Shown: positions 9,001-21,000 of the stretch, one piece after another
Position numbering within the stretch: the first letter of the stretch is position 1
Layout: each line of letters begins with the position of its first letter
Assembly (NCBI GenBank): GCA_944391735.1
Contig: CALXUR010000004.1
Span: 17,556 to 81,555, forward strand
Reading direction: 5' to 3'
DNA: 64,000 bases
Origin: an uncultured Alphaproteobacteria bacterium
Lineage (GTDB): Bacteria > Pseudomonadota > Alphaproteobacteria > CAAHEQ01 > UBA3637
Made by a program: the position numbers

Positions 9001-12000
9001 TTTACCGGACGGATCATCCGGATTCGGGTAAACCACCTCATCAATAAACGGACGATGTAAATCCGTGATTTGAAAGCCCGTCTTTTCCTGAATCTCGGCC
9101 ACGGATCCGAAAACATCCGTCCGCGGAAAATCCGGATTATCCGACTTCCAAACCGGCAACGGTGCACCCCAAAAACGATTGCGCGAAATGTTCCAATCCG
9201 GTGCCGATTCCAACCCTTTTCCGAACCGCCCGTATTTGATGTTTTCCGGCGTCCATGTAATGGCGTCGTTGGTTTCCAACATTTTATCCTTAAAGTCCGT
9301 GACTTTCACAAACCAACTGGACATAGCCCGATAAATCAACGGTGTGTCCGTCCGCCAACAATACGGATAGCTGTGCGTAATTTGTTCCTTTTTCACCAAT
9401 TTACGTTCGGATTTCAACCGCGCCAAAATCGGTTCGTTCGTTTCAAAAACCTGCATTCCCTGATAATCGGGAACTTCCGCCGTGAAACAGCCCGCTTCGT
9501 CCACAGGACAAACAATCGGAAAATCTTTATCCAAAGCCATACAAGCGTTAAAGTCATCCTCACCGAAACCCGGCGCGATATGGACGATACCCGTTCCGTC
9601 TTCCGTTGAAACAAAATCGCCGGCTAAAATACGGAAACATCCTTTGTCCGCCAAATCCGAAAAATAGGAAAATAACGGTGTGTAACGTAACCCCACCAAT
9701 TCGGCACCTTTTATCGTCCCGACCCGTTCCGCGTTTTGCAATTGTTGCTTGTAACGTCCCAATAAAGCCTCGGCCAACACGTATTTTTCGCCGGCCTCTT
9801 CCATGACCGCGTAATCAATATCCTTTCCAACCGCAATCATCAGGTTGGACGGCAATGTCCACGGCGTTGTTGTCCAAACAAGCAGGTTCATCCCGTTTTC
9901 CAACTTGAACAAAACCGTAACCGACGTATCCGTTTTGTCACGATAGGCTTGGTTTACTTCAAAGTTTGACACAGGCGTTTGCGCCGCCCAGGAATACGGT
10001 TGAACGCGGTATCCTTCATACACAAGCCCCTTATCATATAATTCCTTAAAATTATGAATAACCGATTCCATAAAGGGTAAATCCATTGTTTTATAATCGT
10101 TGTTGAAATCCACCCAACGCCCGATCCGTTTGAACATATCCACCCAAATGGAAGAATATTTTAAAACATCCTTACGACAAAACTCATTGAACTTGGCAAT
10201 GCCGTATTCCTCAATCGCTTTGTGACCCGATACCCCCAACTGTTTTTCGGCGGACATTTCGGCAGGCAATCCGTGGCAATCCCACCCCAAACGCCGTTCA
10301 ACCCGTTTGCCGGCCATCGTCTGAAACCGGGCAATCGTGTCCTTGACATAGGAAACCATAATATGCCCGTAGTGCGGCAATCCGTTGGCAAACGGAGGTC
10401 CGTCATAAAAAACAAACTCTTCCGCGCCACGCCGGTTTTCAACGGATTTTTCAAACGTCTTGTCTTCTTCCCAAAACCGAATAATATCCTTTTCCATCTC
10501 CGGAAAAGAAAGTTTTGTCGGCAATTCCGGATAGTGTTTTTGTTTTTCTGTCATTTTCTGTGTTCCTTTATGTCATGATATGGCGGCAGTATATCGGATT
10601 TTCTATTTGAAATCAAGAGTCCTCTCTCTTTTTTTAACCAAACGAAGTTCCTTTTTTAAAAAAAACAAAAAAACAAAACCCCTTGAAAAATCAAGAGGTT
10701 TGGAAAATGGTGCCGATTGGGTGACTTGAACACCCGACCCACGCATTACGAATGATGTTCTCTTTGCAAAAAATAAAGACAAGATTAAAAAAAATCTTGC
10801 AATTCGCTTTTCTTTGTTGTATAAGTGCTTATCTTTGCCGAAGTAGCTCAGTTGGTAGAGCAACGCATTCGTAATGCGTGGGTCGGAAGTTCGAGTCTTC
10901 TCTTCGGCACCATATTCCATATAACTGCTTCATTTATAAGCAGTTATTTTTTTATAAAATCTAATATAAAATTGTCCTGAATTTGTCCAAAAACAGGCTC
11001 GTCGCCCAAAGTTTATATAAAAACACTTTCGTTTTGAAAGGTGCTATAATCGGTCTGTTTGTAATTAAAAACAGAAAGGAAAAACTATGAATTTAAACTT
11101 GGACAAAGAATTTATGACCTTAAATCAGGCTATAGATGCCTATTTTAACAGGGAAGAAGAAGATTTTCAATGGATACCTACCGGATTAGACAAATTAGAT
11201 TCGGAGTTTGAGGGCCCAGGAATACGAACTTCATCTTTAATTGTTGTTGGTGGGGCCTCAAATTCGGGGAAAACAGCTTTTGCTTTAAGTATTGCCTTAA
11301 ATATGGCGAAATACTTCAAAGAATTGGAAACCGGGGCTATTTTGTTTTGCTCCGGAACGCTGTCAAATAAAGCATTGATTCATCAAATTTTATCTTTTAA
11401 AATAGGAGAAGATCCAACTATTTCTAACTATTCATATAATATTAAGAAGAAATGGGAAGTAAGTAAGGAACTAAAAGATTTTCCTTTTTATACATATTGT
11501 AAACCTGTTTTTAACATAGATCAAATAAGAAAGCATGCTGGCAAGATAAAAGATTTAAGGACGATTTTTATTGATGGATTAGAGTCTATTCAAGCAAATA
11601 ATCAGGCTGAAGCGATACAGAGACTTAAAAATTTAGCAACGGAATTAAAAGTTGCCATTATGATAACGAAAAGACTTTCTTTTGGAGTAGAAAATGATCG
11701 GTATCGCGACGCTATTTGGTCTGATTTTGGGGATAGAGACCTATTTATTTACAATACGGACGCGGTTCTTTTATTGAAGTGTCATTATGATTATGTTGGG
11801 TCTAAAAAAGGGTTGTCCTTTGAGGAATCATCACGTCTTCGGAATACCATAACTGCTCAATTTTTACATAATAAAATGGGCTGGGGCGATACAGCTACTG
11901 ATTTAAAGACAAATAGAAAAACAGGAGCCTTTATTAATAATGATTGAAAGATAAGAGGGGGGCATTTGCCCCCCCCTGAATTAATTTTTTAAAATTTTAT

Positions 12001-18000: not shown

Positions 18001-21000
18001 AATTTTTGCACACTTTGCAGGTTGATTGTTTACCTGAATAAAGGTGTTCAAAAAATTGTCAAATCAGCCAAAGTGCATGTTGAACCGCTGTATAATATAG
18101 CGTGGGGCTCATATATTGCAAAAGAGGTAAAATCTGACAATAACACGCTAATGACAGAAAAAGATTTGAGGGTGGAAAGGGAACAAAAATGACAAGGTTA
18201 TTTACTTTTGAAAAGACTCCGGTAAGGTCAATAGTCTATGCAAAATTTTTTAAAAAATAAAATTTAAAAATAGGGCAAAAAGAACCCAAAAAAGTCCTAA
18301 ATTGAGAGCTTACAAAAACAGGCTATTGAAAAATAAGAAAAGTTTTTTGATTGGCGATGCCTTACGAATGCGTTGCTCTACCAACTGAGCTAAATCGGCC
18401 TCGTCGCATTCCTTTATACACAAAATAAAATCAAAAATCAAGTGTTTTTTTTAATATCCTGATCTCTGGTTAATTAAATATGACTCCCTCCGGTGCGCGA
18501 TTTCCCGATTGCCGGCACGCGAAGACCAACCACAGATTTTTCGAATGTACGTGATTAAAGAAACACGCTCCCGATCTTCAGATTGTCTGCCGCAACTGTC
18601 AAAAGCCCGATCAAAATCCAACGGTACACTGATAGCAATTCCCACACCGGCCGCAACCGATAAAATACCCACAATAACATTTAAACGATGATCCTGCTTA
18701 CGTGCCGTCGTTTTTTGCTTTTGGGATACATTCCTCCTTATTACTTGATGCTTACTTGGTTCCATTTTTCATTCCTTTCAAATGGCATTCCCGTTTCTGC
18801 CGATCACAGATAAATCGCCCCTGTCGCCATTTTCCCCATTTTAAAACCAACTCGTTTCCGTTAAAAGAAATAACCGAAGCCCTTTCTTTTGGCTGCGAAA
18901 ACCGATAAACCGATCGCCCGTCATCCGTAAAAATCAAATAGTCGCTCCAATTCGGATGCACCGTTTTCCAGGTAACTTGGTCGTCAGGCGGACAGTTCCT
19001 GTTTACCTCGTTCTCCAATCGGTTTTGATCCAAAATCTTTTTACTTGCATTTAACAATGCCATTTGTTTTAAAACATCACATTTGGATTGCTTGATGATC
19101 TCTTCCGGATGTTCAAAAAAATCAGAGAGGATATCCATTCGAGCCTGTTTACTGCTGCTGACCATATTTCGATAAAAAGAGGAAAGATTATCCCCTGCCC
19201 GCGTGTATTCCGTCAAAGGCTCTTTTAAACAATGAATCTCACCCTTGTTTCGCACCACATCCGTCCATAATTTGTAATCCTCGGCACTTTTGTAATCCGC
19301 ATGATAAGAAAGTCCTTTTTCCTCTAAAAAAGACCGCCGCAACATGGTCGTCGAATGCGCTATCCCGTTTGCAAAATGCAGATTGATGTATACCTGCTCC
19401 GCCGGTGACGGACATCTGATGCGAACCCGACGGCGCACGGTTTCCCCCGATTCGCTCTCCTGATTTTTATAGGCATAATACCCCGTGCATAAAACAGCCG
19501 CTTCAGGATGTTGTTCCATATACTCTGTCTGCCTGCCCAAACGCCGGGTTAACATTTCGTCATCATCGTCAATCCGGGCGATGTATTTTCCCCGCGCCAG
19601 TGCCAATCCCCTGTTTAACGAATAAATTAATCCTCTGTTCTCTTTGTTTTCAACTAAAATAATGCGTTTGTCCCGCTTTTGATAAGAACGAAGAACCTCC
19701 CTCGTTCCATCTGTTGACCCGTCATTAATAATAATAAATTCAAAATTATCGAAAGTTTGGTTTAAAACGGATTCTATAACCCGCTTCAACTTGTCGGCTC
19801 GATTGTAAGTCGACATAACAACTGAAACAATCGGCTCCTTCGCGGCAAAATAAAAGTGTGCCGCAAACACACAGCACACCATGAATATGATAACGACCAC
19901 TCCCCATACGCGATTCATGGCCGTTTTTTCCAACTATTTGGACGATTCACTTTGCATTTTGATCTGGGAAATCGGCGTTTGGGTGCGCATCCCGATCAAA
20001 CGAACATCGGATTCTTCCAATTGAGTCGCCTTATGATACCCACGCGCTGTTTTATTTTCAACACCACACCCGTAAACCATCGTTTCCTTCTTCATAAAGT
20101 CGCCGGATTTTAACTCTTCCATGTCCGTTTCCTCCTTAATTTGTTTTGTCTATTTTTTATATCTTTTATTTTAGGTTATCACAAGTTCCCATATCTGTCA
20201 AGCCTCTTTTTTCAAAAAGGAATGATTCAAAACAGGAAATCAATCCTTTGCCTGTCGCAATCCCTGCCGGAAAGACAAAGCCTCCGCCATATGAATGGTG
20301 TCTATCATGTCCGCTCGATCCAAGTCGGCAATCGTGCGCGCCACCCGAATCATCCGATGGTATCCGCGTCCCGATAACATTAACTTTTGCGCGGCGTCCA
20401 CCAACAAAGCTTTGGCACGCGCACTCATCGGCGCGATTCGTTCCAACACCTGTCCTTCCGCTTGCGCATTATTTGTAATTTTTAACGCTTTAAAACGATC
20501 TCGCGCAAACTCAACCGCACGCTCCACCCGTTTCCGAATGTCTGCGGATGATTCACCCGGAGCCTGTGATCCCAACTCCCATGGCGGAACCAAAGGCACT
20601 TCTATCTGTAAATCAATCCGATCCAACATCGGTCCCGAAATTTTCGCCCGATAATCCTCTCCGCACCGCGGTGCCCGCGAACATTCATGCCCCGGAACCC
20701 CTAAATATCCGCATTTACACGGATTCATCGCGGCAATTAATTGGAACCGCGCCGGATAGGTTGTATGCGCGTTCGCCCGTGCAACGGACACAAACCCCGT
20801 TTCCAAAGGCTGACGTAACGATTCCAACGTTGAACGCGTGAATTCGGGGAACTCATCTAAAAATAAAATTCCTCGGTGCGCCAAAGAAATCTCACCGGGA
20901 CGCGCCTTGAGTCCGCCACCGACCATAGCCGGCGTAGATGCGGAATGGTGCGGACTCCGAAAAGGCCGATCCGTTACCAACCGCCCGTCATGCAACAATC

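Follow-up and report, generated by a model that had tools for sequence, protein, structure and literature searches.

A small element that splits an alphaproteobacterial tRNA-Thr(CGU) gene, carries an intact copy of its own and occurs in inversion-linked layouts

The stretch of DNA analyzed here, 64,000 nt of contig CALXUR010000004.1 (hereafter the window), comes from an uncultured gut alphaproteobacterium. Its gene for transfer RNA (tRNA)-Thr(CGU) is split in the anticodon loop by a 7,607-bp insert, which encodes a tyrosine integrase and carries a complete tRNA-Thr(CGU) of its own (Table 1). A genome of the same species retains the uninterrupted gene, and in related genomes a 111-bp segment close to one end of the insert is found exactly inverted. 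As a whole, we consider it highly probable that an integrative element has split the host gene and supplies a replacement for it, and that inversion of the 111-bp segment gives a second state of the same element.

The host tRNA gene is uninterrupted in an element-free genome

Two parts of the native gene lie on the minus strand of the window, where they were read directly and extracted by script. Positions 1-38 of the tRNA are at 18399..18362 (GCCGATTTAGCTCAGTTGGTAGAGCAACGCATTCGTAA) and positions 30-76 at 10754..10708 (CATTCGTAATGCGTGGGTCGGGTGTTCAAGTCACCCAATCGGCACCA). The 9-mer CATTCGTAA is common to both parts and is also the 9-bp duplication bounding the insert. Joined in silico, the halves give 76 nt that ARAGORN calls as tRNA-Thr(cgt), as an earlier note on this stretch had predicted from the two pieces and their 9-nt overlap, while neither junction alone is called as a tRNA. 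The tRNA inside the insert is called by ARAGORN in the window as it stands; it is the sole tRNA match in an Rfam scan of 10000-19000, and ARAGORN finds no other tRNA-Thr within the 64-kb window. Each half retains its flank, with TTGATT-17-TATAAA upstream of the 5' half and a hairpin plus T-run after the 3' half, both in the places where the earlier note had located them. A consensus promoter scan flagged neither this hexamer pair nor the one preceding the tRNA of the insert. A split tRNA of the Nanoarchaeum type, with halves joined in trans, was considered and rejected: the duplex between the halves has an energy of -4.8 kcal/mol versus a shuffle mean of -5.5, and a duplex at least as good arises in 302 of 500 shuffles.

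The undivided gene is present in locus L109 (GCA_963636545.1), which belongs to the same species and was reached via P0138, a 96%-identical homologue of the neighboring glycosyltransferase. The L109 flanks share 96-98% nucleotide identity with those of the window, and the gene order is the same, namely, glycosyltransferase gene, promoter-like sequence, intact tRNA-Thr(cgt), terminator and ileS. The L109 tRNA gene, at 11520-11595, is identical at 76 of 76 positions to the halves joined in silico and contains the 9-bp core once. BLAST alignments between the two sequences break at window positions 10754 and 18359, and the window equals L109 plus 7,607 bp (10755-18361) plus the 9-bp duplication. 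The gene on the minus strand was thus intact before the intervening DNA cut it, as the earlier note had proposed, and L109 has no plus-strand tRNA gene at this locus. The empty site shows that the plus-strand copy is not ancestral and that the pattern is not due to chance; since L109 lacks the element, the host species is polymorphic for it. If the element were excised precisely at the 9-bp core, the host gene would be whole again. The layout of the window recurs unchanged in L002 (ENA BRZ_SF), which was assembled independently from a different sample.

The element carries a complete tRNA-Thr(CGU) of another sequence type

The tRNA of the element starts 82 nt inside the left junction, in the orientation opposite to the native gene. 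It is identical to the native tRNA at positions 8-50 and differs from it at ten positions (6, 7, 51, 52, 57, 62, 63, 65, 66 and 67). Nine of these differences lie in stems, where no pairing is lost (49:65 becomes G-U); the remaining one, at position 57, falls in the T loop. G1-C72, C2-G71 and the CGU anticodon are retained, and the Rfam score (71.6 bits) is close to that of the native-type gene in relatives (71.5 bits). The description in the earlier note of a full tRNA with its own promoter and terminator (TTGCAA-17-TATAAG; hairpin at 10921-10947), an identical D arm, anticodon arm and variable loop, and compensatory differences in the acceptor and T stems agrees with these results. A 43-nt stretch within this tRNA (10844-10886) is a perfect copy of the host attachment site (attB).

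Each complete copy of the element that we recovered (window/L002, L009, L096/97, L107/108, L101 and L099) keeps exactly one intact and fully paired tRNA-Thr(CGU) at the locus; L089, whose contig ends within the rebuilt tRNA, stands outside this count. The compensatory changes track the layout, and acceptor positions 6-7 always match the 3' half that is in use. All full tRNAs recovered are perfectly paired, with the acceptor stem GCCGAAG/CTTCGGC in the window and GCCGATT/AATCGGC in L009, L096 and L107. The presence of one intact, paired gene per complete copy points to selection on the gene and to the element tRNA as the substitute for the broken host gene in the window, where it is predicted to be expressed and needed.

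Five predicted proteins (P0261-P0265) are spurious open reading frames (ORFs) that translate the reverse complement of the 3' half of an element-type tRNA-Thr (..AEEKTRTSDPRITNALLYQLSYFG..). Judged from amino-acid composition, they apparently come from GC-rich organisms, which suggests that the element tRNA is of the ordinary type in other Proteobacteria. An ORF spanning the junction was also tried as a probe to survey layouts and was abandoned, as it returned only L002 and unrelated tRNA translations.

Related elements differ by an exact 111-bp inversion

Further copies of the family were obtained by exact-protein look-ups of members of the integrase cluster and lie in six distinct host contexts (window, L009, L096/L107, L101, L089 and L099). 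L009 comes from a different species (IleRS 89% identical), which shares with the window the locus consisting of the glycosyltransferase gene, the tRNA gene and ileS. Despite an element that is 98% identical to that of the window from the integrase (int) to the Rep-like (rep) gene, L009 has an intact native-type tRNA directly upstream of ileS, as called by ARAGORN. Side by side, the outer parts of the two sequences are collinear, with the host 3' half on one side and the element 3' half with its terminator on the other. Between them, the 111 bp of L009 are the exact reverse complement of window positions 10755-10865. The break points of the inversion are at two 9-bp cores inside 21-nt perfect inverted repeats. 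In the flipped state the host 3' half is completed by the promoter and 5' half of the element, and the 3' half of the element becomes an orphan that is still perfect. This state is exact to the base in L009, L096, L097, L107 and L108, which represent several independent assemblies and of which the last four share another host locus. L089 has a corresponding flipped state.

The layout of the window is not unique either. L099 (GCA_002373815.1, DFKH01000083.1; 1714-10481) contains an 8.7-kb relative with an integrase of 70% identity, in the window-like state with a broken target and a complete tRNA. In this element the tRNA is of the same type as the broken gene of its host, the block of attachment site and tRNA is inverted relative to int-rep, and the cargo includes an AAA_15/AAA_21 ATPase. 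A third layout is found in L101-L105, from which the element tRNA, spacer and terminator are gone. Here a 158-bp direct repeat flanks the element and the tRNA is rebuilt; in the repeats of L101 (3977-4134 and 11711-11867, 98.7% identical), the tRNA 5' half is preceded by 120 nt of host-like sequence. This arrangement looks like a host promoter and 5' half captured through aberrant excision. Thus, the claim of the earlier note that the target stays broken holds for the window lineage and L099 and fails for L009, L096/97 and L107/108, where the flip has rebuilt the gene, and for L101, where the 158-bp repeat has done so.

Over int-rep and the right arm, identity to the window is 99.5% for L101, 98.0% for L009 and 93% for L096. 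Three layouts of attachment site and tRNA therefore exist among elements that are 98-99.5% identical over int-rep, and both orientations of the 111-bp segment among elements that are 93-98% identical, in different host species. Compared with the int-rep identities, the module of attachment site and tRNA changes layout much faster than the element diverges.

Strand exchange probably maps to the anticodon loop

In all six contexts, a tRNA-Thr(CGU) 5' half with host-specific upstream sequence ends in TTCGTAA and is followed by GGCATYGCMAAT. The right arm after TTCGTAA (GGCATYGCMAATCAAAAA; the part adjoining the loop reads GGCATYGCMAATCAAAAAWCTTT) is conserved over ~95 nt in the family, also at an integrase identity of 70%. 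The most informative junctions are those of L099, whose host anticodon stem (ACTGA/TCAGT) differs from that of the element (ACGCA). Both are chimeric exactly at the loop, one being host ACTGA-TTCGTAA-GGAATGG and the other element ACGCA-TTCGTAA followed by host TCAGT, which places strand exchange within the 7-nt anticodon loop. The element attachment site (attP) of L089 and L099 is tRNA-like at positions 21-38 only (AGAGCAACGCA-TTCGTAA-GGCAT), and that of the window is degenerate, having decayed to AGAGAACAT-CATTCGTAA. None of these three sites would be able to rebuild a tRNA. Neither junction of the window is a tRNA because attP shares only 9 bp with the target.

Two exact copies of the 12-mer CAAAAACAGGCT, at 10988 and 18313, lie one near each end of the element, as reported in the earlier note, and a copy with one mismatch is at 12252. 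The note had offered the 12-mer as a speculative arm site for the integrase. The string is part of a longer direct motif, GTCCT[AG]AAT..CAAAAACAGGCT, at 10974-10999 and 18294-18324, the right copy of which lies in the conserved arm, and with at most one mismatch the 12-mer occurs seven times in the window versus 0.43 expected. An arm-site role is plausible on these grounds.

A possible route from split to rebuilt gene

These observations can be arranged into the following course of events. The 7,607-bp element would recombine with the anticodon loop of the host tRNA-Thr(CGU) gene, the integrase presumably making the cut and the 7-nt loop TTCGTAA probably being the overlap region of strand exchange. 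Since the likeness between attP and its target does not reach beyond the loop and some adjoining bases (9 bp identical), integration would leave two fragments without function, one of positions 1-38 following the host promoter and one of positions 30-76 preceding the host terminator. The complete tRNA-Thr(CGU) of the element, of a foreign sequence type and with its own promoter and terminator, would take over decoding. After integration, its 43-nt copy of the target and the orphan host 3' half would together provide the 21-nt perfect inverted repeats, and recombination between these repeats would flip the 111-bp segment and complete the host 3' half, the state in which the sister copies would have become fixed. 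Within the element tRNA, the attB copy is inverted relative to the attP core, at a distance of ~120 bp. Recombination between the two can only invert the segment, and would delete it if they were in direct orientation; this plausibly accounts for the arrangement.

Either the integrase, acting at the two loops, or a rare exchange in the 21-nt repeats driven by homology or replication could produce the flip; as the repeats are identical, the sequences cannot separate these routes. A role for the recombinase is plausible since the repeats contain the core of the integrase itself, and the inversion may instead be RecA-type or based on replication. It is rather doubtful, in our estimate, that the 111-bp segment with promoter and 5' half is a recombinase-operated switch between a broken and a rebuilt host gene. 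If it were, a one-step flip would form an evolutionary bridge between tRNA-dependent and canonical, tRNA-rebuilding integration, the relation of which has been described as unclear by Hatfull's group.

The matched acceptor stems could have arisen by gene conversion between the 38-nt 5' halves; a Holliday junction migrating through the identical positions 8-31 before resolution is likewise possible. In L089 and L099 the flip costs nothing because the acceptors of element and host are identical there. Behind the host promoter, the orphan 5' half has the element-type GCCGAAG in L107/L108 (L107 12669..12629; 3' end of L108) and the host-type GCCGATT in L096 (12669..12632), these loci being of the same species, with flanks 98.3-98.6% identical. 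Exchange by the integrase alone among the three cores was rejected as the source of the L107 arrangement, as none of the events, all of which were enumerated, puts an element-type acceptor behind the host promoter.

Alternative explanations

Several points weigh against the proposed explanation. In the main subfamily, a simple flip would leave acceptor pairs 6:67 and 7:66 mismatched, so that the matched stems would require a further step. Only one orientation is seen per species (window and L002; L096, L097, L107 and L108), and the flip may represent a rare accident of evolution and not something that the element does actively. Neither an excised circle nor an attP junction was recovered. The element tRNA could be dispensable if a second tRNA-Thr(CGU) gene lay beyond the 64 kb or if ACG were read through wobble by tRNA-Thr(UGU).

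The latter point leads to a different view of the element tRNA, as a passenger with a function in, for example, anti-defense or codon usage, the loss of tRNA-Thr(CGU) being tolerated as tRNA-Thr(UGU) reads ACG. In some bacteria tRNA-Thr(UGU) can indeed read this codon, and thrW is dispensable in Escherichia coli. Phage tRNAs have also been proposed to counter tRNA-targeting defenses (PMC10865867, discussion). A passenger, however, is hard to reconcile with the one intact tRNA-Thr(CGU) of every complete copy, paired and matched at positions 6-7, with an anticodon that is the same as that of the target, and with the position of the tRNA next to attP in all copies that carry one; we regard it as improbable. 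About equally improbable is that the rebuilding layout, in which attP comprises a promoter and the tRNA 5' half as in L009 and L096, is the real design and the window a secondary accident of inversion onto a relic 3' half. The host lineages in which the rebuilt state was seen (L009, L096/97, L107/108 and L089) outnumber those with the broken one (window/L002 and L099), and elements that replace the 5'-distal part of a tRNA are known but rare (Zhao & Williams 2002, to the extent cited in PMC6563490). Against this, the short tRNA-like attP, which is unable to rebuild a tRNA, is common to both subfamilies, and the copies in the rebuilt state have kept the element 3' half as a perfect half of a tRNA. 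The GCCGAAG of the window is co-adapted to the element 3' half and would have no template in an ancestor in the rebuilt state, whereas the reverse change, AG to TT, has one in the orphan host 5' half. From the shared non-rebuilding attP and the one-sided availability of a template, we judge the broken-target layout to be ancestral.

A misassembly of the split, or of the orientation of the 111-bp segment, across the short inverted repeats would be conceivable in that the window appears to come from a metagenome-assembled genome, as do all of its relatives in the genome collection, and in that the region has repeats of 21-43 nt, inside which Logan contigs break. These contig ends, which were also considered and dismissed as a sign of a coexisting empty site, are explained by a second species in the sample that shares the tRNA and has other flanks. 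The identical layout in the independent assembly L002, the recovery of the rebuilt state from several independent assemblies and the matched acceptor stems in each state, which could not come from misjoining, make such an artifact very unlikely. Still less credible is the view of the insert as a canonical island with a displaced fragment, in which the plus-strand tRNA would be the original gene of the host and the minus-strand pieces would be decayed remnants that came with the element, since L109 refutes it with its intact minus-strand-type gene, and the plus-strand tRNA lies within the low-GC insert. The split by an integrative element that brings its own tRNA thus remains the explanation that we favor.

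Comparison with known systems

The closest counterpart of the proposed strategy is tRNA-dependent lysogeny, in which a short core is used, the gene is not rebuilt and the element-borne tRNA has the same anticodon (Guerrero-Bustamante & Hatfull 2024, PMC10865867). It was shown genetically for mycobacteriophage Fionnbharth and occurs in several actinobacteriophage clusters with cores of 8-17 bp, examples being Fionnbharth, LeBron and Gaia; the same study also points to prophage Lj965. In Sinorhizobium meliloti, prophages inactivate tRNA-Leu(UAG) and bring a foreign-type copy (PMC11476347, PMC12429752). The earlier note, which had contrasted the window only with islands that rebuild their target, was therefore right about the replacement strategy, but the strategy is not new (PMC10865867, PMC11476347).

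Three of the five features of tRNA-dependent lysogeny are found in the window, namely, an integrase with attB in a tRNA gene, a 9-bp core without a rebuilt tRNA, and an element tRNA; a temperate phage as carrier is not. The fifth feature is an essential host tRNA, with the element tRNA needed for viable integrants, to which the single intact, paired gene of each complete copy lends indirect support. As in the actinobacteriophages, a tyrosine integrase is encoded, attB lies in a tRNA gene, no tRNA is rebuilt (their cores being 8-17 bp), the diverged tRNA of the same anticodon is encoded by the element and has a promoter of its own, and a single integrase family includes close relatives that rebuild the gene and others that replace it. 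Unlike in these phages, the carrier is a 6-9 kb element of gut Alphaproteobacteria with no recognizable virion genes, which has tRNA-Thr(CGU) as its target and the anticodon loop as its core. Furthermore, the replacement tRNA is 82 bp from attP, inverted, and keeps a perfect 43-nt copy of attB, and the rebuilding relatives use a 5' half with promoter and differ from the replacing ones by an exact 111-bp inversion. Judged from its genes, the element would work like the phage system but is not a prophage. The S. meliloti prophages, related to Mesorhizobium phage vB_MloP_Lo5R7ANS, are similar in their alphaproteobacterial host, in the replacement of an inactivated tRNA gene by the same isoacceptor and in the resemblance of the replacement sequence to that of other lineages. 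By contrast, they are full prophages, and no inversion-linked second state has been described for them.

Canonical tRNA-gene islands (Williams 2002; Islander, PMC4383910) also have integrases that target an anticodon-loop sublocation. L009, L096 and L101 resemble the 5'-distal replacers (Zhao & Williams 2002, as cited in PMC6563490): in these three copies an element-borne 5' half with promoter regenerates the target, and the displaced 5' fragment is left as a direct repeat, as in canonical islands. The window, on the other hand, regenerates nothing at either junction, and both gene halves are displaced. An intact gene at one junction, which marks canonical islands, is thus absent from the window and present, in the reversed 5'-half form, in L009, L096/97, L107/108 and L101. 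In gene make-up, the element is similar to tycheposons and PICI-like elements (Hackl et al., bioRxiv 10.1101/2020.12.28.424599), which are small and combine a tRNA-targeting tyrosine recombinase with cargo and a replication module that consists of a helicase, Rep or primase. Tycheposons, however, leave partial tRNAs as attachment-site repeats and restore their target.

The 21-nt repeats at 10734-10754 and 10866-10886 flank 111 bp that bear a promoter (TTGCAA-17-TATAAG), which is a feature of invertible switches. Promoter-carrying switches run by tyrosine recombinases include the fim switch (FimB/FimE) and shufflons (Rci). The likeness consists in a short promoter-bearing segment between inverted repeats, each orientation of which drives a different partner, and in a tyrosine recombinase encoded nearby, the cognate core of which here lies in the repeats. 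Unlike in fim and shufflons, the two orientations were seen only between host lineages, and the flip gives two acceptor mismatches in this subfamily.

The strategy of breaking a tRNA gene and bringing a copy has been shown experimentally only in actinobacteriophages, and its presence in an element without recognizable phage genes indicates that it is broader than lysogeny. The break-and-replace strategy as such is known already, and the inversion-linked second state appears to be new; the present case extends the strategy to another type of carrier and another group of hosts, and adds inversion-linked states that join replacing and rebuilding integration. The family forms a series of replaced, flipped-rebuilt and rebuilt layouts, a host promoter apparently having been captured in the last, and the elements concerned diverge by 0.5-7% over int-rep. 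With such a series, the route that links tRNA-dependent with tRNA-rebuilding integration can be tested directly. Island finders that seek a regenerated tRNA and a direct-repeat fragment would miss such elements or bound them wrongly, and the only visible tRNA-Thr(CGU) of the host would be annotated without any sign of its foreign origin.

Gene content of the element and features of the locus

The guanine-plus-cytosine (GC) content is ~47% outside the junctions and ~33% inside the insert. The earlier note had described an AT-richer insert with a tyrosine integrase near the right junction, and the profile and the integrase match (PF00589, 1.3e-31) confirm this. Pfam or PHROGs place six of the nine ORFs of the element in families, without a virion function among them, and give no match for the remaining three; neither database shows a capsid, tail, terminase or lysis family among the element proteins. 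Compared with phage and plasmid collections, the tRNA is the only part of the element DNA that matches. The closest integrases of GenBank phages share at most 33% identity with that of the element, JGI metagenomes contain no close integrase relatives, only matches of 29-43%, and no close relatives were found in IMG/VR. An integrase homologue of 42% identity (P0004) was set aside as uninformative, as it comes from a podovirus-like phage genome without tRNA-Thr similarity. The element is best described as a small integrative and probably replicative element.

Table 1. Features of the element and its integration site, in window coordinates
Feature	Position	Strand	Basis or remark
Terminator-like hairpin and T-run of native tRNA gene, host DNA	10676..10701	-	also in empty site L109
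Orphan native 3' part, positions 30-76 including CCA	10708..10754	-	100% identical to L109 11549-11595
Left arm of 21-nt perfect inverted repeat, reverse complement of tRNA positions 50-30	10734..10754	.	
Left copy of 9-bp common core, + strand TTACGAATG	10746..10754	.	holds 7-nt anticodon loop, presumed overlap region
Inserted element, 7,607 bp, ~33% GC	10755..18361	.	L109 break points, GC profile
111-bp segment, 82-nt promoter spacer and tRNA positions 1-29	10755..10865	+	inverted in L009, L096, L097, L107, L108
Promoter-like TTGCAA-17-TATAAG of element tRNA	10797..10825	+	read directly
Complete element tRNA-Thr(CGU), acceptor stem GCCGAAG/CTTCGGC	10837..10912	+	ARAGORN; Rfam RF00005, 71.6 bits
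Right arm of 21-nt inverted repeat	10866..10886	.	within 43-nt stretch identical to attB
Terminator-like hairpin and T-run after element tRNA	10921..10947	+	
Candidate arm-type site, left, GTCCTGAAT..CAAAAACAGGCT	10974..10999	+	speculative
DnaB C-terminal-like ATPase, putative replication helicase	11087..11947	+	PF03796 6e-20; phrog_19
UDG superfamily protein	13174..13785	-	PF03167 1.2e-7
XRE/Cro-type helix-turn-helix regulator	13952..14329	+	PF01381 3.8e-12; PHROGs repressor families
PAD_porph family (agmatine/peptidyl-arginine deiminase) protein	15628..16521	-	PF04371 4e-32
Tyrosine integrase	16652..17707	+	PF00589 1.3e-31; phrog_1 2e-67
Putative rolling-circle Rep-like protein (G2P type), weak match	17716..18192	+	PF23343 2.7e-5, below Pfam cut-off
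Candidate arm-type site, right, GTCCTAAAT..CAAAAACAGGCT	18294..18324	+	inside conserved ~95-nt arm
Orphan native 5' part, positions 1-38	18362..18399	-	identical to L109 11520-11557
Right copy of 9-bp core	18362-18370		within orphan native 5' part
Native promoter-like TTGATT-17-TATAAA, upstream of 5' half	18413..18441	-	read directly; conserved in L109

Two ORFs without a family match, at 11981-12394 and 12398-13177 on the minus strand, have signal-peptide-like N-termini (MKMRLSLFVLFYFLITPIFVMA and MKLSLKTFLLFGCLSVLSMPAWA, respectively) and may be secreted or surface cargo. The PAD_porph-family gene is paired divergently with int in each copy of the element that was seen (window, L089, L090, L096, L099, L101 and L107) and appears to be a core gene rather than variable cargo. 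The orphaned host promoter and 5' half (18362-18441, minus strand) now point into the element, antisense to the rep-like gene and int, and no terminator-like site is present in 18200-18500, between this promoter and the two genes. Once the element is integrated, this promoter could lower the expression of int and rep.

Among the 80 ileS loci examined no empty site was found, since synteny upstream of ileS is lost in relatives except L009 and L109. Around ileS (window 7450-10554, minus strand; loci L010-L088), gene order is not conserved among metagenome-assembled genomes of related gut Alphaproteobacteria, even at 82-83% IleRS identity, and among loci L009-L088 the arrangement of glycosyltransferase gene, tRNA gene and ileS is seen only in L009. 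Elsewhere in the window, further dips in GC content are present at 1001-2500 and 22501-23500 (~0.38-0.41 versus a background of 0.45-0.50), the second of which adjoins an ORF of 288 aa rich in Q and P (21755-22621).

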